Source: Oligoflexia bacterium (GTDB lineage: Bacteria > Bdellovibrionota > UBA1018). Taken from it: a stretch of DNA of 64,000 nucleotides. Below, in pieces: positions 21,995-59,336 of this stretch. The position numbers and the translations under genes are program-made. The notes beneath the pieces were generated by a model. That model did no database searches and was not told the origin of the DNA. It saw only the letters and a program-made list of their open reading frames with translations. The first letter of the stretch is position 1. Every line of letters begins with the position of its first letter. The stretch is taken from the NCBI GenBank assembly GCA_043732485.1, contig JAYTHP010000141.1, positions 462-64,461 on the forward strand, given 5' to 3'.

Positions 21995-22079
21995 TAACCA
22001 AAAAAAGGGGGACTGCGGCGAGGGCTTGCGGCGCTTTGCGCTTGACGAGGCCAGTGAACTTTGACCATACTGGGCGGCT

Positions 22080-23036
22080 ATGATGACCTATTCCCCGCAA
22101 CAGTCGCTTAAAAATAACGTTAGCAACGGACCTCATCGCCCAAGGCTTGATGCCAGCAACCCTCCTCCCCCCAAGCCTCGTCTTTTACGGTCGCTTGCCT
22201 GTCGCTTGCAGTCCAGTCTGGGTTCTAGGCGGTTCGGACTTGTGTGGCTCGGTCTTGCGCTGCTTGCCCCCCATTTCAGTTATGCAGTGACCGAGGAGGC
22301 TGTGATCTGGAAGATCGAAGATCAAGGCGCCGAGCTGGATGGCCCGTGGAACTCAGGAGCCTATTCAGCGCATATTTTTTTAAAATCACAAGGCAGCCCC
22401 CTCACGCTGGAAGAAGTCTTGCTCTTATGTCCAGCTTATGCCATTCGCAGTGAATTTGCTCCCTCACCGCCAAAAATTTTGGAAGCCAACATGAAGAAGG
22501 CCTGCGGTGAGGAAGAGACCTGCTTAAAGACTTTTGAAGTCGGTTCCCTGGCCCTGACCCTGTCTGCGCAGGAGGTGATTCAGGAATTACAAAGCCACTT
22601 AAAACAGGGACCGATGATCTTGTTTGTCAAAAAGGGCATTGAACAGCATCCGCTGGCAGGCACCATCGTACAATTACATCATTTGGTGGTTTATGGCTTT
22701 GAGCCTGGGAGGGAGGCTGACCCGGCAGGCGCTCCAGTGGAAGCCCTCCAGTTTTTAGTCTATGAAAACCAAAAGCACCCAGAAACCGGCGAGCGGCGGC
22801 AAAAAATCTCAGGCTCTCAGCTGGTCGACGACTGGTCGTGGGACGTGGCCGACTCCACCCGACCGGAATACAATGCGCTGGTGAGCAGGGTGTTCCTGAA
22901 AGTGGGCTTAACCGCGCGCTCTTTCATTCGGTCGCTGGATGCCACCCGCTTTCAGCTGGAAACTCAGCCTGCAACCGCCAACAATGAGATCGCCCCAGAG
23001 CCTACCGCTCTGGCCCTTGCAGTTGCAGGAGAATAG
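22080..23036 (+). CDS. hypothetical membrane-anchored/secreted protein
   Basis: 318-aa ORF with hydrophobic segment FGLVWLGLALLAPHFSYA after a Pro/Arg-rich N-terminus. Confidence 0.45.
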   Translation: MMTYSPQQSLKNNVSNGPHRPRLDASNPPPPKPRLLRSLACRLQSSLGSRRFGLVWLGLALLAPHFSYAVTEEAVIWKIEDQGAELDGPWNSGAYSAHIFLKSQGSPLTLEEVLLLCPAYAIRSEFAPSPPKILEANMKKACGEEETCLKTFEVGSLALTLSAQEVIQELQSHLKQGPMILFVKKGIEQHPLAGTIVQLHHLVVYGFEPGREADPAGAPVEALQFLVYENQKHPETGERRQKISGSQLVDDWSWDVADSTRPEYNALVSRVFLKVGLTARSFIRSLDATRFQLETQPATANNEIAPEPTALALAVAGE

Positions 23037-44292: not shown

Positions 44293-45174
44293 CTAGGGGG
44301 GCAGCAGAATATTAAAACCGACGGAGATTGCCGGTGCAAGCGAAAGCTGGTTTTTTAAGATAACGCCTGAGGTGTAGGAAATAACGTTTTCCTGATACAG
44401 CATAAAGCGAACATCAGCCTTCAATGCGAGCCAAGAGGTCAAATAAAACTGCTCTCCTAACCCCGGCCAAAACGCCACCGTGCCGTATTTCGCAGAAACG
44501 CTAGGCGCTCCCGAGGAGTAGTTTAACAGCCCGGCGCCACCTAATAAAAAGAAGTCAAAATAGATAACGGAAGCCCCAAAAATACTGAGTTTACCATAGA
44601 GCAGACTCAGCGAAACTTCGCCTCCTAGCAGCGAGCTCATCTGGTTGGTGTCCGAATGCACGGTCGCCGCCAAGTTAGTTTCTGACTGATTATAGTTGCT
44701 GTTCATCGCCCAGTAGAGACTGTGAAAGCCAATGATTTCATTAAGATAAAAACCCAAGGACCCTCCAAAAACCGTGTAATTCAAGAAGGGATCAGCGCTA
44801 AAAGTCGAGTAAAAGCCGTCAATGGAGACCTTTAAACTCTTCGTGAATTTACGAAACTGCACCACTTGTGGATCCAAGCCTGCGCCTGGAATCCAGTACT
44901 TTTTCTTCAAACTATCCACTCCCACCCTTTTACCGGCAGACCCAGGGGTTTGTGATGTCGCCGAGTTTGCAGCAGGGGTCGAGGCGCCCGCACTCGCCTC
45001 AGGTGCGCCCGACTCACCTAACCCTGCGGCAGCTGCGGTCCTGGGGATCACTTGGTCAAAGCCAAGCGCCAAGACGCTAAAGCCGAGACAAGCAAGCAGG
45101 CTTGAACATCGCTTACCCATAAGGGTTGATTTCTTGTTTGCATGACTCTGAGAATGCAATAAAATTTTCTTCAT
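44293..45174 (-). CDS. secreted outer-membrane beta-barrel-like protein (hypothetical)
   Basis: N-terminal signal peptide; C-terminal alternating aromatic/hydrophobic pattern ending ...ISVGFNILLPP; no specific family recognised. Confidence 0.5.
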   Translation of the reverse strand: MKKILLHSQSHANKKSTLMGKRCSSLLACLGFSVLALGFDQVIPRTAAAAGLGESGAPEASAGASTPAANSATSQTPGSAGKRVGVDSLKKKYWIPGAGLDPQVVQFRKFTKSLKVSIDGFYSTFSADPFLNYTVFGGSLGFYLNEIIGFHSLYWAMNSNYNQSETNLAATVHSDTNQMSSLLGGEVSLSLLYGKLSIFGASVIYFDFFLLGGAGLLNYSSGAPSVSAKYGTVAFWPGLGEQFYLTSWLALKADVRFMLYQENVISYTSGVILKNQLSLAPAISVGFNILLPP

Positions 45175-45246
45175 ACTTTTATGTTAACACTTTAGGTCAA
45201 TTTAAAAAGAGATTTTTTAATTTATTATTGGTTTTTAAAAAAAATA

Positions 45247-46044
45247 TTGCTACACTTTAAGTCGATGGCAAGCGATAAAAAAATTTACTTGAGTAAAAAT
45301 CAAAAAGTCTTTGGTCCCCTCAGCGCAGAAGACCTGGAAAGTCTGCGCATCAAAGATCAGTTAGGTAACTTCGATTGGATCTGGCGGGACCCAGCTCAGG
45401 GTTGGCGCATGGTCAATCAACCTCCAGCCCCACCGGTGCTGGACGCCACCCACTCGGAAATCCCAGATCTGAGCTTGGCTCCTGCCGTCCATGAGCCATC
45501 GGTCCACACCACCCATTCGCGCGCGCATGACCAGGTCCCTAACCGTGACCTTGACCAGGCCGAGAGTCCCTCCCGTTCACAGCAGCAGCCTCCGCCGCTG
45601 CAAACAACAGGGCGCTTGGTGAAGCCACTCCAGTCAACTCAGCTTAAGCGCGACCTCAGTGGGTCCTTAGATCACTTTGATCCAGGCAGCCTGAGTCATC
45701 TTGAGCACTCAAAGTCTGGTAAAACGAGCAGCCGTTTGCATCCCAGCCGCGAGCTGGACCCTGAGACCGTGGTTGCGGTGGGGCATAACCATAAAGTGGT
45801 GATCTCGGCGGTGCTCACGGAAATCAATCGCGAAGGCTTCACCCTCTCGCACGTTAGCCCCTCGTCCCAATCCAGACCCTGTTTACACAGCAATGACCTC
45901 ATTTTTCTCAATCTCCTTAATCCGCACTCTGGCAAGAGCCAAAACATTGAAGCCCGCGTATCAGGGGCGTTCAAGAACCAGGGATTTTGGGAATACCGGG
46001 TGCATTGGAAAAACTCACCCGAGCTGGTCAAGCAACTGGCGTAA
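45247..46044 (+). CDS. hypothetical protein with N-terminal GYF-like/DUF4339-like module
   Basis: YLSKNQKVFGPLSAEDLESL...WIWRDPAQGWRMV resembles the GPxxxxxL...W pattern of DUF4339; remainder Ser/Pro-rich. Confidence 0.45.
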   Translation: MLHFKSMASDKKIYLSKNQKVFGPLSAEDLESLRIKDQLGNFDWIWRDPAQGWRMVNQPPAPPVLDATHSEIPDLSLAPAVHEPSVHTTHSRAHDQVPNRDLDQAESPSRSQQQPPPLQTTGRLVKPLQSTQLKRDLSGSLDHFDPGSLSHLEHSKSGKTSSRLHPSRELDPETVVAVGHNHKVVISAVLTEINREGFTLSHVSPSSQSRPCLHSNDLIFLNLLNPHSGKSQNIEARVSGAFKNQGFWEYRVHWKNSPELVKQLA

Positions 46045-46239
46045 GTGCGGGCTTTGCTACAAGGACCGAAAAAAATCTTTTTTTTTGAAAAATGGGTGCG
46101 CAGCCTGAGTCGTTTCACCCCTTTGCACGGTTACGGTGGTTGTTATTTTTATCGCCAGCTGCCCCACCACCACCACCCCGAGATGGCCTCAAACTCCCTC
46201 GTGAGCAAGCGGAAGCTTATGGATAGTAGGCCGAGTTTG

Positions 46240-46315
46240 TCAGTGATCACCACCAAGTGCTGAAATCTAATGCTTTGGCCGGAAGCAAGAGTGCAATTTT
46301 TTAATCTTTTATTTT
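46240..46315. repeat. ~75-bp dispersed repeat, copy A (cagtgatcaccaccaagtgctgaaatctaatgctttggccggaagcaagagtgcaattttttaatcttttatt)
   Basis: ~85% identical to 47659-47733; both in non-coding DNA. Confidence 0.7.
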
Positions 46316-46559
46316 GAGATTGTTGCCTTGCAAGACCACCCGTAAGGGTCACCGCAGGTTTAAAGGGGCGGAGGACTTCAAGACACAAAAGACCCCGCCG
46401 TCTCGTGAAGAGTGCTCTTGCGAGGGTAGCTGAGGGTAAGGCAGTCATTTGCGCAACGCTGTAAAGGCAACAGAAACCTTCGGTTCCAGGCAGAACGGGA
46501 GTCCGCTGATGAGCGGTCTCTGAAATCATTATTAAAAATACACCTGACATCCTGCCGGC

Positions 46560-47149
46560 GCAGCTTCTCTGAGCTGCCTTTGAAGCTCAGGACTAATCAT
46601 ATTTTTTTCTAAGAATACATAAGTGAGCTTACTTCGAGGATTTTCCCGTAGCGCTTCGATCAGCGAAGTTGCACCCTTGTCTCCGAGACCATTGCGCTGC
46701 AGATGCAAAAGGGTGAAGTTGGGGAGATGGGGGAGCTGAGCTGCCAGCGATGCTGCTCCATCGTCTCCTAATCGATTGCCTATAAAATTCAGAGAAGTGA
46801 GGGCATTTTAGGTTAGGAGCTGCGGCGCCAGCGATGCTACTCCCGCCGCTCCTAACCTAAAATGCCTTAAATTCAATTCAATGGCTTGCGCCTGTAGTCG
46901 GTGGAGCAGTGCCCAATCACCGTCTTGCCATCCTCCATCGTGCTCGAACCCAAAGGAGAAGCGATTAAACTCTCTAGCGACGTTACTTATCAGAAACGTT
47001 CTCATTTCCGCAACATCTCTAAATCGCAGTTTGAGGGCGTCGGATAAATAGCTTAGCTTATGGCGTCGTCTCGGTCTCAGTAGGGCGTATCGCTCTAAAA
47101 ACTGCGGGTCAGTCATTTCCCGAACCTCACTCAGCGAGTCTTGCCTCAC
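46560..47149 (-). pseudogene. small RNI-type LRR gene disrupted near a hairpin-forming inverted duplication (N-terminal ORF 46808-47149 plus out-of-frame LRR fragments 46560-46800)
   Basis: minus-strand translation of 46600-46800 gives NRLGDDGAASLAAQLPHLPNFTLLHLQRNGLGDKGATSLIEALRENPRSKLTYVFL; ORF 46808-47149 ends ...LRHFRLGAAGVASLAPQLLT immediately before the inverted repeat. Confidence 0.45.
46802..46866. repeat. perfect 19-bp inverted repeat (ggcattttaggttaggagc / gctcctaacctaaaatgcc) around a 27-nt loop that duplicates adjacent LRR-coding sequence
   Basis: read directly from sequence. Confidence 0.85.
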
Positions 47150-47658
47150 CCTTCAAGTCCTATAAGCTGCAGCACTTGCTAGAAGATCGAAAAACTCGCT
47201 TGAGCAAAAAGTCAGCCCCACCAAAAACGACGGATCCAACGAAAATCGAGCAGCCTGCGATACCGCCTCCGTGAACTTAACCACGCGTAAAGCCTCCTTC
47301 GTCTCCTCCTTCTTCTCCTCCTTCTTCGTCAAATCTCTGACACCTGCTGACGGCCCCTGATGATTTGCAGGATGCACGGGATGGTTTCCACTCCTTCGGC
47401 CTGCGCAAGAGGATCGGAGGGGGCCGTTACCGCAAGCGCGGCTCTTTCTGAGGGCAGAGAGAAGTAAGCGGGGGCAGGGCTCTCTTTTTGTCAGTAAGCA
47501 TAGATTTCCATCTTGTCCTCTCAATGATCTACGCACTACTTAAATGAGTGGGCTCGTCAACCCCACCTCAACCCAACCCGTTACGTTCCGCATCACACCT
47601 GCTTTGAGTGCACAAGCTCGCGCATGGGGAGCATAAAGGTGGCGTGCGCGATCCTAGG

Positions 47659-47733
47659 TCAGTGATCATCACAAAGCGCTGCAATCTGACCCTTTGGCCG
47701 GAAGCAATCGTGCAATTTTTTAATCTTTTATTA
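47659..47733. repeat. ~75-bp dispersed repeat, copy B
   Basis: tcagtgatcatcacaaagcgctgcaatctgaccctttggccggaagcaatcgtgcaattttttaatcttttatt; paralogous to 46240-46315. Confidence 0.7.
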
Positions 47734-48071
47734 GGGGGTATCAGGGAGAGATCGCTGAGTCTGGACAAGCAGCCCAGACTGGCCGCCATCTGGACGCCCT
47801 CTTGCTCTCACCACGCCCCCTGGTTTTTCGTTCTCTCTGGCATAGTAGAATAAAACCAAACCAGTCCAGTAATCGCCTTGGCGCTCGCTATAGGCTCTTT
47901 TCGCTTATTTTTTTGCCAACTTAAATCTTGTGGACAGCGCTTCTACCTCTGTCCTAGCTGCGATCGCGGCAAAGCGACGAGAGTGGCTGGCGCAACCGCA
48001 CAGCCAATTTTGCCGTGCCTGAGGGTTAAGCGAAGGTGTCCCCAACCCGGCTATCCTACAAGCGCCTGGCT

Positions 48072-49544
48072 TCAAGAATGCGGTGCGGCAGAGACTGGGG
48101 TGACCACCGACGACGACGACGACGGGCTTGGGCAAAAACGGGGATTGAGCAGGAAGGCCTTGCTGGCGTTTTCTAGGAAAAGCTGCAACTGTTCGCGCCG
48201 TTGATTGAGCGCGCGGACGCTTTCTTGGTACCAGGCGTCTTTCACGCTTGCTGAGGCGAAAGAGAAAGAGGTGGCTCCCGCCCCCCGTTGACTCACGCCG
48301 CCCCGCGCGACACGACTCACAACAGGAGTGGGGGTGGGCTTGCTAGGAGCTTTCGCCGAAATCGCTGCCCCGGCGCCAAAGATCCTCGTGTCTACCTGGG
48401 TTTGCAGCTCCCGAAACTCGCTTTCAAGCGCCGCTAATTGCTCAAACCCCGGGCCATAAAATTCCCGCCCCTGCGGACGAGCTGCAGTCAAAGAAGGCCT
48501 TGCGCCATGCGCCTTGATCCACACCAGCCAGGGGCCGGTGTTTTTTTTCACTCCTGAAAGTTTGGCCAACTCAGCCAAAAACTCATTCAAGCTCACCTCA
48601 AACTGCCTTAAGCCTGCTTGTAAACCCGTTAACTCAGCCTGAGCCTCTTGCCTCAGCTTCGCAACCAAGATCGCCTGCTGCCTGGCGTATTCACTGCCTG
48701 AGAGCCCACCCCAGTAGACCGTCTGCTGGTGAAAAACCTTCTTTTCAGCTCCCACCCATGCAGGACGCGGGTTCTTTGGGTCCAAAGCCGTCTGTGGTAA
48801 AAATGCCAAAGCCTTTTGCGCTTCTCCCGACTGCTGATCCGCCTCCACCAAAACGGCATGATACCAGCCGCCCACTCCCAGACTGAGCTCCTTACCGATT
48901 GCAACATGACGGGCAAGCGTCACAACGGCAGTGGTTTCCACCCGCTGCTCGCTTAAGATTTCCCCGGGAAGTCCAATTAAAATGAGCTTTAACGCTACAC
49001 CGTCAGGCAAATTACTGACCACAACCAGCTGCTGTTTTTGCTGCTGCTCAGTTGCATTGCCCCCGGATTGACCACTGACCGCAACACTCAAATGCACCCC
49101 TGCTTGCGCAAACGGCAGGGCTGCCACCTTCGCAAACTCCGCCTGCTGCGCCACCGAAAAACCTGGCAACGGTGCGAGGGCCGCGCCAAAAGATATAAGT
49201 CCTGAGAAGAAGGAGCCCGGAGCCCTTAATTTTTCCCTCAAGGCGCTCAGATCGACGAACTGCCCGGCCTCGAAGACCGCCACCCCGAGCAAAGCGCAAA
49301 CCACGGTCACCCGTAGCACGCGCTTCACGAGATGCTTTCTGGTAAGCCGCCCCACCACCGCGTGGGCCTGCCGCAAGCTTTGCTGGTCGATCATCTCCGT
49401 GCGATCCTCAGTGCGCATGATGGTGCGTTCTTGCAAAAAACTGAGATCGTCGCCAGCCTTCGTTTTTAAGCTCTCCTGCGCGTGAGTAGGCTCGAGCTTC
49501 AGCGTCGTTTGCTTTTTGGCACTCATTTTGCTTTTTTCCCGCAA
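48072..49544 (-). CDS. hypothetical membrane protein (single TM, Ala/Gln-rich, coiled-coil-like), distal gene of motor-like operon
   Basis: 490-aa ORF with TM segment VLRVTVVCALLGVAVF; co-oriented and overlapping with upstream gene. Confidence 0.45.
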   Translation of the reverse strand: MREKSKMSAKKQTTLKLEPTHAQESLKTKAGDDLSFLQERTIMRTEDRTEMIDQQSLRQAHAVVGRLTRKHLVKRVLRVTVVCALLGVAVFEAGQFVDLSALREKLRAPGSFFSGLISFGAALAPLPGFSVAQQAEFAKVAALPFAQAGVHLSVAVSGQSGGNATEQQQKQQLVVVSNLPDGVALKLILIGLPGEILSEQRVETTAVVTLARHVAIGKELSLGVGGWYHAVLVEADQQSGEAQKALAFLPQTALDPKNPRPAWVGAEKKVFHQQTVYWGGLSGSEYARQQAILVAKLRQEAQAELTGLQAGLRQFEVSLNEFLAELAKLSGVKKNTGPWLVWIKAHGARPSLTAARPQGREFYGPGFEQLAALESEFRELQTQVDTRIFGAGAAISAKAPSKPTPTPVVSRVARGGVSQRGAGATSFSFASASVKDAWYQESVRALNQRREQLQLFLENASKAFLLNPRFCPSPSSSSSVVTPVSAAPHS

Positions 49545-51352
49545 ACGTTGGTGATTTTCGATTGTAAACTACCTAACTCATCGGACCAAATTTCTGAGTC
49601 TTGGGAAGAATTATCCTCAAATTTCCCCCAGTTAAAAATCGGGAGGCCCTCTTCGTCTTTTTGGGTGGGGCGATAGACTTCAGTTTCCGTGTGTTTAGCG
49701 TGTGCCTTATCAGAGGGTTTTTTAAAAATACTCTCGCCCAAGGTGCTATAAATATCGGCGCCTAACGCCTGGAGATTGTTCCAGGTGGCAATCCATTGAC
49801 TCATCAAATAGCGATTGATAAAACCCAGTTCGTGGTTAATCCGCTGCACCAGCGAGCGCCTGGCATCAGGAATTTCCTTGAGAAAGCCTTGCAGCATGGA
49901 AAGCATCGCCGCTTGAATCTGATGCTCCTGCTCCACCTCGCGCTTGGAGTTCAAGCCCTGGCCGTGGTATTGCTTGACCATCCGTAACAGCTCTTGGGTC
50001 GATTTTTCTTCATCCAGCAGCAAGTTGATCTCTTGTTGGGCGTTAAAAAACAACGAGGACTTGACCCATTCGGTGGTAATTTTTAAGGGTACGCCATTTT
50101 TCTTTTTCTCGAGCATCGCAATGACTTTGCTATAAAGATCCTCATCTTGGCCGGTCTTGCGATACCTGCTATACCACTGATACAGCCACTGGTAAGCCGG
50201 GTCATAGGTCTTGCGAAAGAACTTAATCACTTCTTGAGCGTGCGCATACTGACAGTTCTCAAAAAGCGCAATAGCGCCGATCATCGGTGCATCCACCGCA
50301 AAGGTGTTATTCAATTCTCCAAACATCATGTTGTCTGCGGCGCTCACGGCGCCTACATAATTTTTCATGAGTAGAGTCGACCAGCCTAGGCCAATCAGCG
50401 AATCAATGTAATGGTTGGAGTCTCGTGCTATTTTCTTAAACTCTTTTTCTGCAGCGCCAAAGTTGCCCTGATTATAATAGCTACGCGCCATGTTGAGTTG
50501 CAATTGATCGCGGTGTTGGTTCAAGGAGCTAGGAAGATGCTTATTTTTCAAGAAAGTTTGCGTGAGATTAATCACATCTAAGTCGTTGCCCTTAAGCGCC
50601 GCTAAATTGATGCTGCTAAACATCATGTGCAACGGGCTACTCTCCAACAGGTGCATCCCAGCCTTGACGTCGGCACTGGGTCCTGCTTCGGCATACTTAG
50701 CGTGCACAATCGAGGTGCCTGCTTCCCAGATCTGGTTGCGCTGGGTGGGCCAAAGACCATTGATATTGGTATTGGCAAAAGCGGTGGTCAGCTGGGGTGG
50801 CAACTTCAGCGTCGAGTACTTCCGGTGCACTTGATTCAAGCAACCCAAGGCGGCAAGCCTAATACCATCAATTTCTGGCTGCGGCGGCTTATTGGCTATG
50901 GCATTGAGCCCACGGTAGGCGAAATGCCAAATCCCTAAATCCAGATAGGCCTTATAAACCACGTAGAGCGCGAGGTTTTTTACCTCCTCCGTCTGCGGTG
51001 CCCCTTGCACGCGGTAGCCTTGGACCAGGTTTTGCAAAATCTCCTCTTGACTCTCACCCGAGCGCGTCAAGCGCTCAATAATCCGAGCAGGCACGTTGCG
51101 ACCAAACTTCCAAGACTCCTGGCGCGTGCAGGCTGCTGAAGCCCAGGAAAAAGGCGCCCGACTCACGGGCGCGGCCTGCGCAAGCGACGACACCGAGCAC
51201 AATAACGACACTACCGAAAAAAACAAGCCTGCGCGACCTTGACTCCAAAGACTGGGACGGACCCAGAGGCGATCAATCATCAGGCTGATTGCCTTAGTCC
51301 CTGCGCAAGACTTTAAAAACAAAGGGGTAAGTAACCGCAACATGAACGCCAC
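49523..51352 (-). CDS. hypothetical secreted protein (possibly TPR/helical repeat)
   Basis: 609-aa ORF with hydrophobic N-terminus, rich in helix-forming residues; no motif recognised. Confidence 0.5.
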   Translation of the reverse strand: MAFMLRLLTPLFLKSCAGTKAISLMIDRLWVRPSLWSQGRAGLFFSVVSLLCSVSSLAQAAPVSRAPFSWASAACTRQESWKFGRNVPARIIERLTRSGESQEEILQNLVQGYRVQGAPQTEEVKNLALYVVYKAYLDLGIWHFAYRGLNAIANKPPQPEIDGIRLAALGCLNQVHRKYSTLKLPPQLTTAFANTNINGLWPTQRNQIWEAGTSIVHAKYAEAGPSADVKAGMHLLESSPLHMMFSSINLAALKGNDLDVINLTQTFLKNKHLPSSLNQHRDQLQLNMARSYYNQGNFGAAEKEFKKIARDSNHYIDSLIGLGWSTLLMKNYVGAVSAADNMMFGELNNTFAVDAPMIGAIALFENCQYAHAQEVIKFFRKTYDPAYQWLYQWYSRYRKTGQDEDLYSKVIAMLEKKKNGVPLKITTEWVKSSLFFNAQQEINLLLDEEKSTQELLRMVKQYHGQGLNSKREVEQEHQIQAAMLSMLQGFLKEIPDARRSLVQRINHELGFINRYLMSQWIATWNNLQALGADIYSTLGESIFKKPSDKAHAKHTETEVYRPTQKDEEGLPIFNWGKFEDNSSQDSEIWSDELGSLQSKITNVCGKKAK

Positions 51353-53204
51353 CTTTCGGACGAGGGAATTGTAATTCCTTCAATTTTCCTAAAATACACT
51401 GCTCTAAGTCGCTATTGTTCAGCGTCGAGGACTCCACCCGGGCTGACTCCACGCGCCCTTGCGGATTAATGCTAAAGTGCGCCAACAACTTGCCACTGGC
51501 ATCAGGCGTCGAGGCCATCGCGCGGTCCTGGCAAAAGCGGATCTCAGTGCGGTGCGCATGGATCACCTTCCCTACTTCACTTTGCGACAAGCCTTGATCA
51601 ACTTCCACTTCGCTACCTGCCACCTCGACAAAGCCCGACCCGCCGCCTGCAGCGGAGATCTTGTTGCCACTGCCTTCGCCGTAACCCACGCCTCCTACCT
51701 GATCGCCAACCTTGATCTTTGATCCTGCCGTAGCATAGCCATGATAGGAAGGACCCACCTGAGTGGTGCCTAAGTTCTCACCCGCCCGACTGCGAATGTC
51801 AGGAGCCCCAGAATCGCTGATGACAGGCGCACTCGACGAGCTGGTTTCCCCAAAGCTCTTGGTATTGCCCAGCATAGCGCGCATTTTTCGCAAGGTCTCG
51901 CTACTCTTTTGCTTAGCCGCTTCCTCCGGGCTTTGCCTTGAAGCTCCTGAAGCCTTGCTAGGTCCAGTCTTAGCTTCCGTCGTGGCCTTTCTTTGTGCCT
52001 GCTTTGAGGAGGTGCTGAGCTTGGCCTCAAACTTGCCAGGCGCCGTCTTCCTGGTCTCAGGTTTTCTCGAGGCCTCAGCTTTTTTAGTAGGAGCCGCAGG
52101 TTCCGGTTTCTTATTGGCGACCGGCGCCTCGGGCTTGCGCTTCAGCTCAGGCGTCTTTTTAGGCTCGGTCTTGGTGACCGGGGTCGGGGCAGCCTTAGTC
52201 TTGGCTTCAAACTGAGGCTCAGGCTTAGGCTCAACTGGCTTGGGCGGCTCGATTTTTTTCGGCTTGGGCTCAGGTGGCTTGGTCGGCTCAGGCACCGGCA
52301 CCGGCACAATGCGCTTGGGCTCTTTTCTCGTTAAAGGCTTAAGCGGCTTCAAGGTGACGGCTAAGACTTTTTCAGGCTTCTCCACTTCCACTTTCGGCTC
52401 AGCCGCAGGCGTCCAGGGGAAAAAAAGCACCTTGACCCCAAAACTTAAGAACAACCCTAGCGCAAGCAACAAGGCAATCAGGCGTTTGCGTTGCCGCTCC
52501 TCGAGATCCTCACTGCGCGTGAGGCCCAGCAGCGGTAATTGCGCTAAATCAGCGTTTTTTAGTAACTTAAAGCGCCACCAACGATTGGCCCGTGCCACCG
52601 TGCAGTGAGTGAGCTCATGCGGCGTGAGCTTCCAGGTATCCCCGACGTTGCCTAACAGCGATTTTTGATGCCGTAACTTGAGATGCACTCCAGGCAACAA
52701 CACCTGTACAGAGTAATGCTCGGCGCTCTTTTGCAAGATAAAGACCGGATTTTTTCGAGTATAAGCCACGAATTCATTTTGCACCTGAACGGAATCCGTC
52801 AGCGAGCGACCCGATCCCGAGAAAGCAAACAGCGCTAGATCTCGCACCCCACTTAAATCGGGTGCGTCGTGCAACTCCAAATAGGCAGGCGAAATGGCAC
52901 TCAGCCTGCGCACCCCGATCTTTAAATCGCTAAAAGGATGCTGCCAGATTGCCTCCTGATGATCGTGGCAATCCAGCTTAAAGGTCCTAGGGAGGCTGGC
53001 TTCCGCTGCCGACCTAGCAGACGAGCGCTTCGCCGTCTCAGGGTCATCCGCCACACCGCAGTTGCGCAAATAGACGCTCCCATCAGCCTGCTCCAGCAAC
53101 CATTGGAAGCGATAATCCACCGCCATCGGTTGGGTCGCATCCCAGATCTGGGTACGCTTAAAGGTCGGGAAATAGGTGGTAACTTGATATTTTTCAGCTT
53201 TCAT
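51294..53204 (-). CDS. TonB-like protein with Pro/Lys/Glu-rich linker and AgmX/PglI-type C-terminal domain
   Basis: single TM (LIALLLALGLFLSFGVKVLFF), long PEPTKPPEPKPKKIEPPKPVEPKPEP linker, C-terminus ...CILGKLKELQFPRPKGGVHVAVTYPFVFKV typical of AgmX/PglI C-terminal domain. Confidence 0.65.
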   Translation of the reverse strand: MKAEKYQVTTYFPTFKRTQIWDATQPMAVDYRFQWLLEQADGSVYLRNCGVADDPETAKRSSARSAAEASLPRTFKLDCHDHQEAIWQHPFSDLKIGVRRLSAISPAYLELHDAPDLSGVRDLALFAFSGSGRSLTDSVQVQNEFVAYTRKNPVFILQKSAEHYSVQVLLPGVHLKLRHQKSLLGNVGDTWKLTPHELTHCTVARANRWWRFKLLKNADLAQLPLLGLTRSEDLEERQRKRLIALLLALGLFLSFGVKVLFFPWTPAAEPKVEVEKPEKVLAVTLKPLKPLTRKEPKRIVPVPVPEPTKPPEPKPKKIEPPKPVEPKPEPQFEAKTKAAPTPVTKTEPKKTPELKRKPEAPVANKKPEPAAPTKKAEASRKPETRKTAPGKFEAKLSTSSKQAQRKATTEAKTGPSKASGASRQSPEEAAKQKSSETLRKMRAMLGNTKSFGETSSSSAPVISDSGAPDIRSRAGENLGTTQVGPSYHGYATAGSKIKVGDQVGGVGYGEGSGNKISAAGGGSGFVEVAGSEVEVDQGLSQSEVGKVIHAHRTEIRFCQDRAMASTPDASGKLLAHFSINPQGRVESARVESSTLNNSDLEQCILGKLKELQFPRPKGGVHVAVTYPFVFKVLRRD

Positions 53205-53881
53205 TGAAAAGATCCTAATTTTCTTATGTCGACTCCCATTTCAGGATAGAAGTTCTTCCGCTTACGAAACAGATGCTTATCTGCCTTCTGGTCTTCTTTC
53301 CCTAACTCAAGCAAAGAATCGTAAGGGTTGCGGTTATCAAAGCCCTCAATCAACTCATCATCAAAATTTAAATCCTTCTTGCGTGGCATCCCGGCCCCCT
53401 TTGCTCCCGCCTTCCAAGGCGCAGTCTGCACGCCTTGCAAATCAATCGGCGGAGGTGTGGGAGGCTCGTTAGGGTTGGCGTTCATCTCCTCTACGGCCCC
53501 AGGAACCAGTGGCAAGGCCGCTTGCGCAGCCGGCTGCTTGCTTGCAGCCACCACAGGCTTTGCGACGCGCGCGGCCACCGGAGCATTTGCCGCAGCCAGC
53601 CGCCCTTCGCCAAGCCAACTGACTGCAAGCAACGTCAATCCAGTCACGGTAGTCAAATCTATGACTCCGCAAAAAAAAGAAGCGATCACGTGAGAAACGG
53701 GTCTGAGCTTAAGAGCGTGAGAGGGTCTCACCTGCGGCCCAAGCGGGCGGCGGCAAAGGGAGCTTTGAGGCCTTGCTCGCGTGAGTGACTTACGGGTTGT
53801 CTGATCGATCATGCGCAACGCCTCCTGCTTTTCATCCTGACTTTTTAACTTTTCCTGCATGCATGCTTGCTTGCCTTCCAC
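53201..53881 (-). CDS. hypothetical protein (TM segment, Ala/Pro-rich), ATGA-coupled to downstream TonB-like gene
   Basis: 226-aa ORF with 4-bp overlap to 51294-53204. Confidence 0.4.
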   Translation of the reverse strand: MEGKQACMQEKLKSQDEKQEALRMIDQTTRKSLTRARPQSSLCRRPLGPQVRPSHALKLRPVSHVIASFFCGVIDLTTVTGLTLLAVSWLGEGRLAAANAPVAARVAKPVVAASKQPAAQAALPLVPGAVEEMNANPNEPPTPPPIDLQGVQTAPWKAGAKGAGMPRKKDLNFDDELIEGFDNRNPYDSLLELGKEDQKADKHLFRKRKNFYPEMGVDIRKLGSFQ

Positions 53882-53961
53882 CCTTGAGTTCTACCGCTAT
53901 TCTCAAATATTTTTTTTCAGCAAAAACCAATTTTTCAAAACCCCACTTTGCCCAGCAATCG

Positions 53962-56900
53962 TTACTCTTCCTCGCTGGGTCCACCTTGCACCGGGCTCTG
54001 TAAGGAAGTCCCAGCCCAGGCTGAAGCATTCTTAATCTCCGCAGCATCCTGCGGGTCAAGGGCCTTGGTAAGATGAACGTCGTGCAAAAACTGAACCACC
54101 TTCTCCTTGTTCCTGACTCCGTAAAATCCGCGAATCAACGCTGAACTGATCTGACTCTTCTGGTCGTCCGTTTCCACCGTCAGCTTGCCTTGAAACTCCT
54201 TCAGCCCCTCAGCTGCCGCCCCCACAAAAATCAGTAACCCACCGCGCGCTAGACTCTGCTCGCGCTCACCTAACCATTTTTGATCAGACGCCGCTTGAAT
54301 CAGATACTGCACCTGTCCCAGCAGACCCTGATCCGCCGCTCGCACCAAAGCGTCGCGCCAGGGGCGGGGTCCATGGAGGGTGGCAAAAAACTTGCCGTGC
54401 AAGAGTGGCGGACTCTCACCAACGTGCTGAAAGCGCACCATCACCTGATCTGGACTCATCAGACTGTCTGCGTCAGATTCCCCAAACAGGCGGAGGTAAT
54501 CTTCTGCTTCAATTCCTGAATTTCTTGCAAGCTCCAGCGCCTGTTTCTTGAACTCTTCCGTTTTCTTTTGAAACGGAGCGCGGGCCTCCTCTACGCTCTT
54601 TTTGTAAACCACAAGGTCGTCTTTTGAGAGACCCTCAGGCTGTGGCAGCGCAGAAAAATCGTGGGCAAAGACCCCATACAAATTAGACCACTCGGCAAGC
54701 GCTAAGACCCGGAAGCGGGTCCACGGCATCTTGACTATCTGCTGTAGAACTTTTTCCATCTGCTCGATGAAATGCACGCGCTTTTCAATGGCGTGGCCAT
54801 CCAGCGCAATAGGCGAGCTGCGCCGCACTTCTAAGGCCGCAAGCCTGAGACCCATCGACAAGGAGCGCGCCAGCACGTGCAGCAGGGGCAACTGAAACAA
54901 AGGATCCAGTCCGCCAAAAGAGCTCGCCACGGTTTGCAGCAACTTCAAGCGGTGCCCAAAATCGATCCGACTGGCAGTCGCTAGCGCCAGGATCGCTCGC
55001 AGCGCCTTTTGCGCGCTGTCGCCTTGCTCCAAATCTCTGTCGGCATTATCAGCCACCTTTTTACCACCCCCACTTAAGCGCAACTTGAGCAGTAGGTGGT
55101 AGTTCTCACAAAAATTTGATCCTGGGCCGCAAACCTTAGGGTCAGCAAGCACGCTACTGAGTAATCCCGTATCTCCCGACAGGTAGGCAAACAAGACGCT
55201 CTTTTTGCGCATCTCTGGCGAGGGAGGCCCTTGCCGCTGCAAGCCTAAATAGTTTTGATAATCCCGCGCCGCCTTGCCAAAATCAAACTCCTCTTCTTCC
55301 AGCGAACCGCGAGTGAGCAGCAACTGGAGGTTCATATCCAAGTCCATGCCCCCTTGCGGGATTTTCTGGAAATAGCTGATAGCCAGCTTGCGGTCTTTCA
55401 TCCCCAAGGCGGCATTAGCCCCTAGCGTACAGACCTTAGCCTTGAGCTGATTGGCGGCTAACTGATCCGCAGGCGTCGCCTCCACTACTCCACCCACCAC
55501 CTTGTCAAAGGCATCTACCCGCTTCAAGACGTCCACATACTGCGCCTTGCTAAAAAGGGTTTCAGTGATCTTAAAGTAACTAAATTGCCGGGTTTTTTTC
55601 AGGGCCTTGAGCAACTCGGGCAACTTATCGCCCTTCAGCTGACCATTGCCTAAAATGTGGCCTGTAAATTGGAACACCTCAGGCCAGCGCTCACTCACGA
55701 CATAGGTGTCAACGACTAAGGAAATCGACGCCACCACGTCCTTGCTCGTAGGCCCATGATCAATATCCTTTTGCACGCGCTGGATCGCCTCAAGCACGGC
55801 GCCTTGAGAGTAAAGTAGCCGATTCGCCTGCGAGCGCAAGTCCTCAATCGCCAGCCGGTCTTTGGGATTATGACACTCATCGACAAACCTCAGCCACTTG
55901 CGCAAATCCGCGGCCAACTCCGGGGGATGAGCCGGGATCGGCGCCACCTTGAGATTCTTGGGAAAAAGACCACGCGCCTGCAGCACTTCATACAAAATCG
56001 TCGCCGATTGCAGACGGGCAGCCTCAATCAGCCCAGAGTTAACAGCCGTCTGCTGGGTATGCTCGACGATCCAACGGTACTGGGCAATGGAGGCGTCATA
56101 ACTTTTAATCAAGTACAACGCCTCAGCCAGGTTAAAGCGCACTCCGATTTCTGCGGGCGTTTTATCGTGAATTTTGAGCAACAACACGTCAACCGAGATC
56201 AGCACGCTTGCCAAACTGGTGACACGCTCGGAGCCTTTGGCAGCCGTCACCGCTTTTTGCAGCCTTGAGGCAGCGTCCGTCAAACTTTTAGTCGCGGGAT
56301 TAAGGCTAAACCCAAGTTTTTGTAAAGCCGCCAGTTGCTGAATCGATTGGTAGAGTTTCGGGAATCCGCCCTCTGCGGTCTCAGCTTCCATCGAAAATTG
56401 AATAAAGTCGACCAAATCGTTTTTATCTAAATTGCTCTGATACACGAGCTCCTTGAGCGTCTCAAGCTCATCACTTAGTCCCGAACCCCGCAGCAATTTA
56501 CCAAAATACTTTAGCGCCTTAATCGTCGTCTTCCTGGCGTTTAGCTGCTCAACAAAAGGGATCAGGCGATCAATCGTGTAATCAGGCAGCCTACTGCGAT
56601 GGCCTGTGAAGTAAAACAGCACACAGTTCAGATACAACTTTTCTAAATCGCCAGCGTCCCGCTCCACCTTGTTCAGCTGCGGGGTCACGGTATAAGCAAT
56701 TTCCCGCTTCATCGTGGCAATGGCTTCGTTAATTTTGTTAAAATAGAAGTAATCAAACGCCAGGCGATCGAGATAGAGCGGATAGTAGGGATCTGAGGGC
56801 TTGACTTGATAGGCCAGCAGGTAATCAATGGCCGCTTGGTATTGTTTTTCTTTCACCAGCAGGTCGTTTAAGCTAAATTCAGCGTTGGACAAGTCGGAGC

Positions 56901-57387
56901 TTTTTTTGAAGTTTTGGACAAAATACTTAAAATCAGCAATCGCTTGATCCGATTTCTCTAGCTCGGCGTAGGACTTGCCCCGCAAAAAAATCATGCGTCC
57001 CACTTCTGGCACCTGCGAATACTCTTTTGCAAAACGGGTCACTAAATCGACCACCACACCAAGCGATTTCTTATACTCCAAGCCAGAGGCCGCAGCTTCC
57101 GCAGGGCTTCGATGATTGTCGTGCGCCAGCCGGAAGAGCACAGCGTCCATGCGGTAGTAATTCTCAATGATCTGCGAGCGAATGTTGACGTCGTCTTCGC
57201 GCGACCGCTTGTTCACCGCAATCACTTCTAATTGCCTGATGGCACCGCGGTAAAAACTAATCGCCTTTAAATCCTTGGCAACCGCTTGCAAAGCAGAAGT
57301 ACTGGCACTTGCTGCCACCTCAAGACTGTCCCCTAGGCCATGAGTGAGTATCAGCAAAAAAAGGAGGATCCCACGAAAACCCTTCAT
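53962..57387 (-). CDS. large secreted tetratricopeptide-repeat protein (1141 aa)
   Basis: signal peptide MKGFRGILLFLLILTHGLG; recurrent TPR-like helical repeats with A/Y/L signature positions throughout. Confidence 0.7.
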   Translation of the reverse strand: MKGFRGILLFLLILTHGLGDSLEVAASASTSALQAVAKDLKAISFYRGAIRQLEVIAVNKRSREDDVNIRSQIIENYYRMDAVLFRLAHDNHRSPAEAAASGLEYKKSLGVVVDLVTRFAKEYSQVPEVGRMIFLRGKSYAELEKSDQAIADFKYFVQNFKKSSDLSNAEFSLNDLLVKEKQYQAAIDYLLAYQVKPSDPYYPLYLDRLAFDYFYFNKINEAIATMKREIAYTVTPQLNKVERDAGDLEKLYLNCVLFYFTGHRSRLPDYTIDRLIPFVEQLNARKTTIKALKYFGKLLRGSGLSDELETLKELVYQSNLDKNDLVDFIQFSMEAETAEGGFPKLYQSIQQLAALQKLGFSLNPATKSLTDAASRLQKAVTAAKGSERVTSLASVLISVDVLLLKIHDKTPAEIGVRFNLAEALYLIKSYDASIAQYRWIVEHTQQTAVNSGLIEAARLQSATILYEVLQARGLFPKNLKVAPIPAHPPELAADLRKWLRFVDECHNPKDRLAIEDLRSQANRLLYSQGAVLEAIQRVQKDIDHGPTSKDVVASISLVVDTYVVSERWPEVFQFTGHILGNGQLKGDKLPELLKALKKTRQFSYFKITETLFSKAQYVDVLKRVDAFDKVVGGVVEATPADQLAANQLKAKVCTLGANAALGMKDRKLAISYFQKIPQGGMDLDMNLQLLLTRGSLEEEEFDFGKAARDYQNYLGLQRQGPPSPEMRKKSVLFAYLSGDTGLLSSVLADPKVCGPGSNFCENYHLLLKLRLSGGGKKVADNADRDLEQGDSAQKALRAILALATASRIDFGHRLKLLQTVASSFGGLDPLFQLPLLHVLARSLSMGLRLAALEVRRSSPIALDGHAIEKRVHFIEQMEKVLQQIVKMPWTRFRVLALAEWSNLYGVFAHDFSALPQPEGLSKDDLVVYKKSVEEARAPFQKKTEEFKKQALELARNSGIEAEDYLRLFGESDADSLMSPDQVMVRFQHVGESPPLLHGKFFATLHGPRPWRDALVRAADQGLLGQVQYLIQAASDQKWLGEREQSLARGGLLIFVGAAAEGLKEFQGKLTVETDDQKSQISSALIRGFYGVRNKEKVVQFLHDVHLTKALDPQDAAEIKNASAWAGTSLQSPVQGGPSEEE

Positions 57388-57872
57388 TTGTTATCAACCA
57401 CCACCAGCCTGAAATCCTCAAAGCCGTTAAGGCTTGCTGAAGCGAGAATTTTCTTCAAGGTGGCAAAAGGGGTCTTCTCATCTGCAAGCACCATCAGTTG
57501 ATTGAGTGATCCCGCACCAGGAGCTTGAGCGCGGCTCTTGCGCAAAAAGGTCTGATTCAGATTTCTGGGGGTGCCGTTGGCTTCAATGTCCAGTACGTCA
57601 AATTTGAAATGCGTCAACTCGCTGACGACCTTATCGTCCAGCAGGATGACGTTTTCTGCAATCTCAAGCTTCAGGGTATCGACAATAGCCACCGAAGATT
57701 CTGAGATCGGTAGCTGGATACTGTTATGAGGGGCAATTTTGTTCACTTCGGTAGCAAAACTTTTCAACAAAAAGACCAAAAGGATTGTGAAAATGTCTGC
57801 CATCGAGGTAATCTGTAACGCCACTTCGGTGATAGGAACCAACTTTTTCTTGCCAAATCGTTTTTTCTTCAC
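57384..57872 (-). CDS. ExbD/TolR/AglS-family biopolymer transport protein
   Basis: N-terminal TM ITSMADIFTILLVFLL typical of ExbD/TolR; ~160 aa; ATGA overlap with neighbours. Confidence 0.75.
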   Translation of the reverse strand: MKKKRFGKKKLVPITEVALQITSMADIFTILLVFLLKSFATEVNKIAPHNSIQLPISESSVAIVDTLKLEIAENVILLDDKVVSELTHFKFDVLDIEANGTPRNLNQTFLRKSRAQAPGAGSLNQLMVLADEKTPFATLKKILASASLNGFEDFRLVVVDNK

Positions 57873-58354
57873 TTTAAGCCTGTATTTTCCGCCGATAATG
57901 CGGCTTGCGTGAGGACCTTTTTACTACTCTCAATCACCATCACCAGCCGCTTATAGTCAATCTCGTCTGCAGCAGCAATCACCAAAGTATCAAGTTTTGG
58001 AAACTGCAGCTTCAACTTCTCAAGCTCAGCGTTCAAGGTGAGCAAATCCCACCCGCCCGTTTCCGCCTGCGCTTCAATTCGCCCAATCACCCGCTCAGAG
58101 GTCTCATTACTCAAGTCCATCGAATTGTTTTGATGTAAACTGAGCTTAATCTGCGGCGGCGCATCGCCGACTAAAGTGGTTTTCACCGGTTCCGCATCCT
58201 TAGCGTCCTGCGGCACCACCACTTCCAGCATCCCTAAATTAATAAAGGAGGCTGAGAGCAACAAATAAGTGATAAGTACGGTAAAGCAATCGATGATCGG
58301 AGCTAAATTGAGTTCAACATCACCACTTTTACTGTCTGAGCCTGAAGATACCAT
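57869..58354 (-). CDS. ExbD/TolR/AglQ-family biopolymer transport protein (second copy)
   Basis: LNLAPIIDCFTVLITYLLL TM motif; ~160 aa. Confidence 0.75.
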   Translation of the reverse strand: MVSSGSDSKSGDVELNLAPIIDCFTVLITYLLLSASFINLGMLEVVVPQDAKDAEPVKTTLVGDAPPQIKLSLHQNNSMDLSNETSERVIGRIEAQAETGGWDLLTLNAELEKLKLQFPKLDTLVIAAADEIDYKRLVMVIESSKKVLTQAALSAENTGLK

Positions 58355-59029
58355 TTAAGTCATCCTTTTTGAGTTGCCCTTGAAAGGTTCAGTTTCTGAC
58401 TGATAATAGCGCTGCTTAATCATATCCATCATGCGAATCGCTGATTGCTCAATGTCCGTGTTCAATCGGTTAGTCTTCGTCATCAAGAAGCTGAAAATCA
58501 CCATACAAGGAATGGCAACTCCTAAGCCCATCATGGTGGCATTCATGGCAGTGGCAATCCCTTCGGCAAGCAAGGCCGAGCGCTGCTGGGCATTGGCCGA
58601 GCCGATTGCCTCAAAGGAGTGAATCAGACCGACAATCGTCCCAAACAACCCTAGAAGGGTCGCCACATTGGCAATCGTTGCAAGATAGGGCGTACGCACG
58701 CTCACTTTAGCGGAGGCTTCACTAGCTGCAAGTTCAAGCCCTTCTTCTAACAAATCTTCCGGCTGATGCGCTCGCAAAAGCGCCTCTTTCACCAAATTGG
58801 CCACAGGCTTCGCTTGATATTGATCACACAAGGATAATGCTTCAGCCAGGCGATCCGTCATCATTAAATCTCGCACCCGGTCAAAAAATTCACGCATATT
58901 GGCAATAGGATAAACCCAAATCAAGGCATTAGAGCGCTCTATGATGATTGCCAGGGCAAAAACCCCTGCAATAATGATCGGCGCCACGTGAAGAAAGTTT
59001 GGTCCTAATAGATCAGTCATCCCCTGCAT
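58355..59029 (-). CDS. MotA/TolQ/ExbB-family proton channel
   Basis: three TM segments; conserved LGLFGTIVGLIHSFEAIG...LAEGIATAMNATMMGLGVAIP block. Confidence 0.8.
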   Translation of the reverse strand: MQGMTDLLGPNFLHVAPIIIAGVFALAIIIERSNALIWVYPIANMREFFDRVRDLMMTDRLAEALSLCDQYQAKPVANLVKEALLRAHQPEDLLEEGLELAASEASAKVSVRTPYLATIANVATLLGLFGTIVGLIHSFEAIGSANAQQRSALLAEGIATAMNATMMGLGVAIPCMVIFSFLMTKTNRLNTDIEQSAIRMMDMIKQRYYQSETEPFKGNSKRMT

Positions 59030-59336
59030 AATTTTAATTCTCCTTTTTTTCTATCCGTAAATTTTTAAACGCCAACCCCGATACTCTAAGGTTAGCCGAT
59101 CTCCTAGACAACATCAAGTTAAGCTATCAGTAAAAATGAATAAATAAATTTTTTTTCGTAATCTTATTTTTTTACTTTTTTATAAATACTAACAACTATT
59201 TTTCATCGCCATTATTCTGACAGTGCAGACCTAAAAAATTTTTACCGCAATCCTAACCAGGCAACCAGACTGCTTCAAACGCGACCAACAAAACTGCCGG
59301 CTAAGAGAACTCACATGCCTAACTCCTGATGATCCC

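Follow-up and report, generated by a model that had tools for sequence, protein, structure and literature searches.

Organization of the operon

The DNA analysed here, referred to as the window, is a 64,000-nucleotide stretch of contig JAYTHP010000141.1 from an Oligoflexia bacterium (Bdellovibrionota), and the system in question is an operon on its minus strand whose products resemble those of the Agl/Glt gliding genes. Eight co-directional open reading frames (ORFs), numbered g1 to g8 in transcription order from 59029 down to 48072, cover this region and mostly overlap (Table 1). The initial annotation of the window had described an eight-gene operon, and all eight ORFs were recovered where it had placed them; the operon as delimited there stands, with two further associated genes found at 44293-46044. 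A chance arrangement is excluded, since each of the eight has collinear homologues on other contigs.

At the first junction g1 and g2 abut directly, the TAA stop of one being followed by the ATG of the other. Overlaps of 4 nucleotides (nt) are found at g2/g3 (GTGA), g3/g4 (ATGA) and g5/g6 (ATGA), and another ATGA overlap of the same length joins g7 to g8 if translation of g8 begins at the codon-7 ATG; this start gives the 484-aa product annotated on the Logan contig mentioned below. The g6/g7 junction is either an overlap of 50-59 nt or, with a g7 start at Met25, a spacing of 13 nt, and the sole true gap in the operon (80-149 nt) separates g4 from g5. A good Shine-Dalgarno sequence (aaaggag) precedes the ATG of g1, and the spacer upstream of it is AT-rich relative to the window as a whole (about 53% GC). 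The couplings at g1/g2, g2/g3, g3/g4, g5/g6 and g7/g8 fit the earlier proposal of one transcription unit; the promoter assigned to the spacer is inferred rather than demonstrated, since a simple sigma-70 consensus scan gave no minus-strand site in the spacer, with counts across the region at chance level. A single promoter there driving the whole operon is plausible. A terminator scan likewise returned counts at chance level.

Table 1. Features of the operon and of the surrounding DNA, with positions in the window.
Feature	Coordinates	Strand	Length (aa)	Basis
AT-rich spacer, presumed operon promoter region	59030..59336	.		34.5% GC, 5' of g1
g1, AglR-like TolQ/ExbB/MotA-family proton channel (predicted), 3 transmembrane helices	58355..59029	-	224	PF01618
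g2, ExbD/TolR-like protein in AglQ position, one transmembrane helix with Asp22	57869..58354	-	161	PF02472
g3, second ExbD/TolR-like paralogue in AglS position, transmembrane helix with Asp26	57384..57872	-	162	PF02472
g4, secreted all-helical tetratricopeptide repeat (TPR)/solenoid scaffold in GltD (AgmU) position	53962..57387	-	1141	Signal peptide, TPR family, AlphaFold2 (AF2) model
g5, membrane-anchored small protein with GltF/CglF-like C-terminal motif	53201..53812 (full ORF 53201..53881)	-	203 (full ORF 226)	CglF family matches
g6, GltG-like transducer	51294..53204	-	636	NF033768 C-terminal domain
g7, secreted TPR protein, GltC-like	49523..51352	-	609 (probable start Met4 or Met25)	NF033756 and signal peptide
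g8, bitopic membrane protein limited to the sub-clade of the window	48072..49526 (full ORF 48072..49544)	-	484 (full ORF 490)	Homologues in three loci
GltA/GltB-type outer-membrane beta-barrel protein	44293..45174	-	293	TIGR04565 OMP_myx_plus
Stand-alone cytoplasmic GYF-domain protein, divergent from barrel gene	45247..46044	+	265	Family GYF_2
DUF2844 gene and DUF3443 gene, mutually overlapping, directly upstream of the operon	59337-61182	-		DUF3443 332 bits
Eukaryote-like repeat proteins: two large leucine-rich repeat (LRR) proteins (LRR_6, LRR_4, LRR_8), one F-box-like plus LRR protein	7167-9545 (-), 32274-34433 (+), 36436-37917 (+)			Domain scan

The putative motor genes g1 to g3

The product of g1 matches PF01618 (MotA_ExbB) at 96.8 bits and has three hydrophobic helices. 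It scores below all equivalog cut-offs for TolQ (73 bits, cut-off 221), ExbB (57.7, cut-off 206) and MotA, and its top matches among solved structures are TolQ (expectation value, E, of 1.4e-13) and ExbB (3.6e-10). Residues T131, T165 and P174 are invariant across 48 relatives, so that g1 presents the three-helix channel with conserved channel residues that characterizes AglR-type proteins. In a comparison with E. coli TolQ and ExbB and with relatives of its own clade as references, g1 shared 29% of 112 aligned residues with TolQ and 33% of 169 with ExbB, against 50-79% identity to the first gene of related clusters, and a neighbour-joining tree set its clade on a long stem away from both E. 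coli proteins. The initial annotation had left room for a placement of the channel firmly within ExbB; this placement is not supported, given the difference between the identities to the E. coli proteins and those inside the clade.

Both g2 and g3 match PF02472 (ExbD), at 48.5 and 41.9 bits, in keeping with the MotA/TolQ-ExbD-ExbD assignments made at the outset. The aspartate in the membrane helix of g2 is invariant (49/49 relatives) and that of g3 is kept in 49 of 50, and the two genes provide the pair of distinct ExbD/TolR subunits, each with a membrane aspartate, found in AglQ/AglS-type motors. Their mutual similarity is minimal (E of 0.003 across 23 aa), which marks them as old paralogues. 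Scores against the ExbD equivalog (about 23 bits, cut-off 123) and the TolR equivalog (23.5, cut-off 127) are low.

The scaffold, the small protein and the transducer

The N-terminus of g4 is signal-peptide-like and has no lipobox Cys. TPR matches in the window copy are sub-threshold only; within its family, 39 of 40 members match the YbgF/CpoB TPR model, and the AF2 model (mean predicted local distance difference test score, pLDDT, 88.6) is all helical with 53 helices, as expected from the earlier description of a secreted 1141-aa TPR protein. The only structures in the Protein Data Bank (PDB) that this model resembles are long TPR scaffolds of a generic kind. A HMMER search of 1.84 billion representatives gave 305 relatives, most of them 1000-1250 aa long and 23-36% identical across most of their length, in which C760 is invariant and C753 nearly so. 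A word-indexed protein search recovered only g4 itself, and its family profile found generic TPR proteins there. No match to the NCBIfam Glt models was obtained among the 40 family members. Its size and position, its signal peptide and its helical TPR fold would all suit a GltD-like protein.

The small protein g5, left uncharacterized in the initial annotation, is better described as GltF/CglF-like (CglF and GltF are the same protein, PMC4488436): 13 of 16 members of its family match the CglF model NF033764, with a best E of 1.2e-5. It has one transmembrane segment, at residues 65-87 of the 226-aa form, and its conservation is confined to the C-terminal 60 aa or so (31-46% identity). A small GltF/CglF-type protein encoded between GltD- and GltG-like genes is a characteristic of Agl/Glt clusters that the g5 family shares.

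The product of g6 consists of a cytoplasmic N-terminal domain (residues 1 to about 240), a transmembrane helix (242-260), a Pro/Lys-rich linker (263-400; 23% Pro, 20% Lys) and an AgmX/PglI TonB-like domain (539-631). The last was predicted in the initial annotation, along with the Pro-rich character of the protein, and scores 95.3 bits against NF033768 (cut-off 40). When classified with the relevant models, g6 thus passes as AgmX/PglI and fails both for TonB_C (20.7 bits, cut-off 24.6) and for tonB_Cterm (22.9, cut-off 27.1). Its best full-length match is to GltG (NF033760; E of 1.7e-33, 116 bits), followed by GltJ (2.7e-18), and helix, Pro-rich linker and terminal domain together make up a GltG-type transducer. 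A match to the TolA equivalog (23 bits, cut-off 59) runs through the low-complexity linker, and among PDB entries the family profile finds C-terminal domains of TonB (3.6e-5). Two cysteines, C558 and C603, are invariant, and the conserved Cys pairs in g4 and in g6 are consistent with periplasmic domains. The N-terminal domain is conserved among relatives; its single-sequence AF2 model is beta-rich and, at a pLDDT of 47, too poor for meaningful fold matches. With the C-terminal region of g6, the word-indexed search recovered two fragments.

The last two genes had been listed as being of unknown function. This holds for g8, which has no Pfam or NCBIfam match, but not for g7, which gives a weak but specific match to GltC (NF033756; E of 1e-11, 44 bits). 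Relatives of g7 match the same model at 1e-14 and 1e-11, and homologues at the corresponding position share 25-33% identity with it over some 550 aa. The signal peptide of g7 ends in SSLAQA/AP, and a start at Met25 would place a good signal peptide at the N-terminus. The product of g8 has a transmembrane segment at about residues 76-97 and homologues in only three of the related loci described below (L002, L003 and L008). Those of L003 and L008 carry an N-terminal GltJ-type GYF domain (GYF_2 at 61.9 bits in L003), which the window protein and the L002 copy do not have; against solved structures, the g8 family profile finds the GYF domain of GltJ/AgmX (7z3c; E of 2.2e-6).

Associated barrel and GYF genes

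The initial annotation had suggested looking for glt/agl partners elsewhere, and two associated genes lie within the window. The first, on the operon strand and 2.9 kb downstream, encodes a beta-barrel protein that passes the OMP_myx_plus model (70.2 bits, cut-off 60). It also matches, at 3e-46, a hidden Markov model (HMM) of the proteins of about 250 aa that lie between g6 and g7 in relatives, and homologues are present in 20 related loci, either at that position or directly upstream of g1. A GltA/GltB-type barrel is therefore encoded in the window, as a single gene and not as a GltA plus GltB pair.

The second gene encodes a protein with homologues beside related clusters in L002 (2.6e-36), L053, L032, L034, L005, L037, L012, L045 and others. 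Its GYF_2 domain is sub-threshold in the window copy (E of 0.031), three relatives pass the cut-off, and the PDB entry that its family profile matches best, though weakly (E of 0.006), is again the GltJ GYF domain 7z3c. In M. xanthus this domain binds AglZ and so links the machine to a cytoplasmic platform (PMC11135422). By analogy, g8 and the stand-alone GYF protein probably act as a cytoplasmic or inner-membrane link to positioning factors, a suggestion tempered by the widespread occurrence of GYF domains in bacteria.

The closest homologue of the GYF protein (L002, 9563-10243, minus strand) shows a sub-threshold PilZ match (E of 0.026) in its C-terminal half. If real, this match would link the cluster to cyclic di-GMP control, and gliding in Bdellovibrio is known to be governed by cyclic di-GMP, according to references listed in PMC12546842.

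Related loci and conservation of gene order

With aligned g1 homologues as the query, a scan of the species genomes in GTDB yielded 51 related loci (designated by L numbers), nearly all from metagenome-assembled genomes of Bdellovibrionota, Oligoflexia or Bacteriovoracaceae, with a best match of 72% identity. Several of these genomes carry 2-3 such clusters. The order g1-g3, g4, (g5), g6 and/or g7 is kept in 22 of the 28 loci that extend at least 9.5 kb after the g1 start. Four g4 relatives whose surroundings were looked up are each preceded by two ExbD genes, and the ExbD pair by a MotA_ExbB gene, except in L002, where the contig begins inside the g1 homologue. Downstream of g4, where the contig continues, follow a small gene, a protein of 500-600 aa, a TPR protein of 560-630 aa and sometimes a gene for 400-490 aa; the 500-600-aa protein is a g6 homologue in every locus looked up, with a weak or faint TonB_C flag in two of them. 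In BLASTP comparisons with these loci all eight window proteins had collinear homologues, at 56-79% identity for g1 and 23-51% for the others.

Two types of genes that come with the operon in relatives also match models from gliding systems. The proteins of about 250 aa between g6 and g7 in many loci pass the OMP_myx_plus barrel model, and proteins of about 560 aa encoded upstream of g1, again in many loci, match the Bdellovibrio MIDAS (metal ion-dependent adhesion site) adhesin and CglD models.

MIDAS/CglD-like genes of this type (about 435-600 aa) adjoin most related clusters, lying directly 5' of the AglR-like gene or right after the GltC-like gene (L004, L053, L034 and about 25 others). 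Their frequency at these sites suggests that each cluster is accompanied by its own adhesin, a linkage that is not discussed in the paper on the Bd0875 MIDAS protein.

Several loci show peculiarities of their own. A second type of cassette in Bdellovibrionota genomes is present in L013, L014, L024, L027, L036, L048 and L049, consisting of a channel gene of the same kind and two ExbD-like genes, with no gene intervening before one for an AgmX/PglI-tailed protein of 220-606 aa (the copy in L036 meets the contig end), and lacking any GltD-, GltF- or GltC-like gene. Locus L053 (JAGTJX010000003.1), with a complete cluster together with adhesin and barrel genes on a 982-kb contig, is labelled Lysobacteraceae; this sole hit from a gammaproteobacterial family among hits otherwise from Bdellovibrionota points to horizontal transfer or to a mislabelled bin. 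In L003, a TonB-dependent receptor gene (20162-22375, minus strand) lies on the opposite strand about 1.6 kb past the cluster, with an HNH gene before it, a linkage unseen in the other loci examined and apparently coincidental.

The lineage to which the window belongs is very sparsely sampled. Four of six window proteins queried were found in a collection of 15 billion proteins, all four as singletons at 90% identity, and the sole other copy of the locus is on a 26-kb Logan contig from run SRR23617243.

Comparison with known systems

A cluster of the same order and with similar gene sizes is present in Bdellovibrio bacteriovorus HD100 at Bd1474-Bd1481, which Lambert et al. 2011 reportedly also named as a gliding cluster. 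In Table S3 of Luciano et al. 2011 (PMC3169522), Bd1481 to Bd1474 are listed as homologues of AglR, AglQ, AglS, GltD (AgmU), GltF, GltG, GltB and GltC, with sizes of 236, 185, 167, 1237, 82, 488, 254 and 713 aa. More specifically, Bd1480 corresponds there to MXAN_6861 (AglQ), Bd1479 to MXAN_6860 (AglS), Bd1477 to MXAN_4868, Bd1475 to MXAN_2539 (GltB) and Bd1474 to MXAN_2541 (GltC), and Bd1478 is termed "adventurous gliding motility protein U". Altogether B. bacteriovorus carries four gliding clusters (PMC3169522; PMC12546842). Compared by published order and sizes, HD100 and window proteins measure 236 and 224 aa for AglR, 185 and 161 for the AglQ-like, 167 and 162 for the AglS-like, 1237 and 1141 for GltD, 82 and 203 for GltF, 488 and 636 for GltG, and 713 and 609 for GltC. 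Bdellovibrionota loci of exactly the Bd layout (e.g. L028, L055) are detectably homologous to the window from g1 through g7. The window differs from HD100 as follows: the barrel gene, between GltG and GltC in HD100, is displaced downstream and paired with the GYF gene; g5 is longer by an N-terminal anchor; g6 is longer by a bigger cytoplasmic domain; an eighth gene, g8, is added; and there is no adjacent MIDAS adhesin gene, the DUF2844-DUF3443 pair lying upstream instead.

The Agl-Glt machinery of Myxococcus xanthus (AglRQS, GltA-K, CglB) shares with the window a TolQ-like channel with two TolR-like subunits bearing membrane Asp residues, a GltG-type transducer with a disulfide-bonded AgmX/PglI TonB-like tail, a giant periplasmic TPR protein, a small GltF/CglF-like protein, a GltC-like TPR protein, an OMP_myx_plus barrel and a GYF module. 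In M. xanthus, however, the genes are split into the clusters G1, G2 and M1, whereas in the window they form one locus. Neither GltE, GltH, GltI, a TonB-tailed GltJ, GltK, CglB nor AglZ was seen in the window. Likewise, g4 has no lipobox, whereas the numbering of mature GltD begins at Cys1 (PMC11761067).

A "core complex" operon, aglRQS-gltD-E-G-C plus one extra gene, is known from Gammaproteobacteria, Geobacter and Fibrobacter, with unknown function (PMC3169522). It resembles the window operon as a single unit of about eight genes joining the motor to GltD, GltG and GltC homologues. GltF- and GltB-like genes, in contrast, have been found only in Myxococcales and Bdellovibrionales (PMC3169522). 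The window has both, has no recognisable GltE and has its relatives in Bdellovibrionota. Because of these GltF- and GltB-like genes, the locus is an expanded glider-type version and not the bare core.

Finally, TonB-ExbB-ExbD and TolQ-TolR-TolA systems also combine a three-helix channel and a single-pass Asp subunit with a bitopic Pro-rich transducer of TonB-like C-terminal fold. The window departs from them in having two distinct ExbD-like subunits, in its four to five additional conserved partners in the periplasm or outer membrane, in missing the curated cut-offs, and in that no transporter, TolB or Pal was found among the ORFs scanned.

Identity of the machine

The operon most probably encodes an Agl/Glt-type envelope-spanning machine, such as drives gliding in M. 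xanthus and Bdellovibrio. Five independent family matches agree in this respect, namely those to GltG/AgmX-PglI (g6 and its relatives), GltC (g7 and its relatives), CglF (g5 family), OMP_myx_plus (barrels of relatives) and MIDAS/CglD (in relatives). Gene set, family matches, conserved residues and conserved synteny are directly observed, and the locus is a divergent example, of the Bdellovibrionota type, of the known Agl/Glt family; it is no new kind of system. Its variant features are the displaced barrel, the anchored and extended g5, the extra g8, the stand-alone GYF protein and the lack of an adjacent adhesin gene. The preference expressed in the initial annotation for an Agl/Glt-type motor over a TonB-siderophore system is supported by the GltG, GltC and CglF matches, by the gene order of Bd1481-Bd1474 and by the Bdellovibrionota affiliation of the relatives.

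Several observations weigh against this identification or limit its reach. Size, fold, position and family-wide synteny are the basis for calling g4 GltD-like. The window copy of g5, although sharing the conserved C-terminal motif, matches CglF at an E of 0.18 and 11.8 bits only (cut-off 90), without any above-threshold family match in Pfam or NCBIfam. The scores of g6 against the GltG equivalog (116 bits, cut-off 650) and of g7 against the GltC equivalog (44 of 450 bits) are similarly far under the cut-offs, so that the window proteins are distant homologues of those of M. xanthus and not equivalent at orthologue level. FHA domains, present in M. xanthus GltG (PMC11761067), were not detected in g6 with Pfam or by comparing the family profile with PDB sequences. 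The barrel gene is parted from the operon not only by distance but also by an opposite-strand gene, and neither GltE nor a second barrel was found in the 64 kb. No window ORF matched the HMM of the relatives' MIDAS adhesins at an E up to 1; the adhesin may be encoded elsewhere in the genome. The core Agl/Glt set alone is insufficient for motility (PMC3169522). Moreover, Bdellovibrio clusters are expressed at different predatory stages (PMC12546842), and the output of the machine therefore need not be surface gliding.

Alternative readings

The serious alternative concerns this output and not the identity of the machine. The same Agl/Glt-like apparatus might serve surface-polymer transport, as M. 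xanthus Agl-Nfs does for the spore coat, or movement during entry into, residence in or exit from prey or host. We consider this unlikely, though well worth keeping in mind. M. xanthus Glt paralogues serve sporulation instead of motility and core sets are present in non-gliders (PMC3169522; PMC3858216); the expression of different B. bacteriovorus clusters is highest either in the early bdelloplast or at exit (PMC12546842); several related genomes have 2-3 clusters; and the window itself contains no recognisable adhesin gene but does encode LRR and F-box-like proteins, a hint of eukaryotic-host association. Set against this, AglRQS, GltD/F/G/C and the GltB-like barrel constitute the set of a potential glider, save GltE and GltA (PMC3169522), and no sequence feature distinguishes gliding from other outputs.

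It is tempting to speculate further on a re-wired Glt machine, in which the coupling function of GltJ would be split between g8 and the stand-alone GYF protein, the latter possibly with a PilZ-like C-terminal half, GltF would have become membrane-anchored, and the MIDAS adhesin would have been replaced, conceivably by the DUF3443 lipoprotein. Such a machine would perhaps serve interaction with a eukaryotic host rather than predation or gliding, because of the LRR and F-box-like proteins encoded nearby. As a whole this scenario is improbable.

A reading as a divergent relative of Tol-Pal, with a role in cell division and outer-membrane integrity, is a far more remote prospect. It is true that g1 is slightly nearer to TolQ than to ExbB, that the g4 family matches the YbgF/CpoB TPR model and that g6 weakly resembles TolA through its linker. 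The TolQ, TolR and TolA scores given above nevertheless all fall well short of their cut-offs, neither the operon nor the scanned window ORFs yielded a TolB beta-propeller or a Pal/OmpA-like lipoprotein, the several copies in related genomes are unexpected for Tol, and the GltG, GltC, CglF and OMP_myx_plus matches are foreign to Tol-Pal systems. A Tol-Pal system was rejected on the first three of these grounds.

Least probable of all is a TonB-ExbB-ExbD system powering TonB-dependent outer-membrane transporters: the MotA_ExbB and ExbD domains, the TonB-like topology and Pro-rich linker of g6 and the PDB matches of its family profile would fit, but the unmet cut-offs for TonB_C and tonB_Cterm set against the clear AgmX/PglI score, the low ExbB and ExbD equivalog scores, the modest identity of g1 to E. 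coli ExbB, the two ExbD paralogues with four conserved extra genes found in no Ton system, and the absence of Plug or TonB_dep_Rec domains from the ORFs of at least 600 aa and the other ORFs scanned in the 64 kb, in line with the earlier remark that no TonB-dependent receptor is adjacent, led to its rejection.

A model for the Agl/Glt-like machine

For the Agl/Glt-type machine favoured here, a working model can be drawn up with contacts taken from the M. xanthus structural model (PMC11761067). Five copies of g1 would form an AglR-like channel around the AglQ/AglS-like subunits g2 and g3, whose membrane Asp residues would take up protons. This inner-membrane motor would engage the transmembrane helix of the GltG-like g6, whose Pro/Lys-rich linker may span the periplasm so that its disulfide-bonded TonB-like tail could dock on the large GltD-like TPR scaffold g4. 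The GltF-like g5 and the GltC-like g7 would complete the periplasmic assembly, with g7 joining it to the GltA/B-type outer-membrane barrel. The barrel in turn is expected to hold a surface adhesin; none was recognised in the window, and relatives encode MIDAS-type adhesins beside the cluster. Proton flow might in this way be converted into movement of the adhesion complex along the cell surface. By analogy with M. xanthus, we infer not only the contacts between the proteins, but also the use of the proton-motive force and motility as the output.

The surroundings of the operon

Between g8 and the GYF gene lies a stretch of some 2 kb (46045-48071) with no recognisable gene, no ORF with homologues in related loci, no pseudogene remnants and no Rfam match. 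Two copies of a 78-nt direct repeat, the only ones in the window and 88% identical, lie in it at 46239-46313 and 47658-47732, together with three 40-nt units 84 nt apart (46648, 46732 and 46816) and a 32-nt inverted repeat at 46794-46874. This region may be the scar of a rearrangement that displaced the barrel and GYF gene pair, or the remnant of a mobile element.

On the other side of the operon, the DUF2844-DUF3443 pair occupies the site where many relatives have the MIDAS-adhesin gene. The DUF3443 protein is rich in Ser, Thr and Cys with a lipoprotein-like N-terminus, and the pair was found beside no related cluster. Further away, the F-box-like motif of one of the eukaryote-like repeat proteins has an E of 3.7e-5, slightly under the cut-off. 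LRR and F-box-like proteins are unusual in free-living bacteria, and their presence hints at interaction with a eukaryotic host.

Implications for the Agl/Glt family

With the window, the Agl/Glt motors gain a very divergent representative, from a Bdellovibrionota-like lineage that has been little sampled. Across the 51 related loci, the AglR-Q-S, GltD, GltF, GltG, GltC order, the channel Thr and Pro residues, the membrane Asp residues and the periplasmic Cys pairs are constant, whereas the parts that can be exchanged are the MIDAS adhesins and GYF modules, along with the place of the GltB-like barrel. This picture of constant and exchangeable parts could guide structural and mutational work on the transmission of force across the periplasm.

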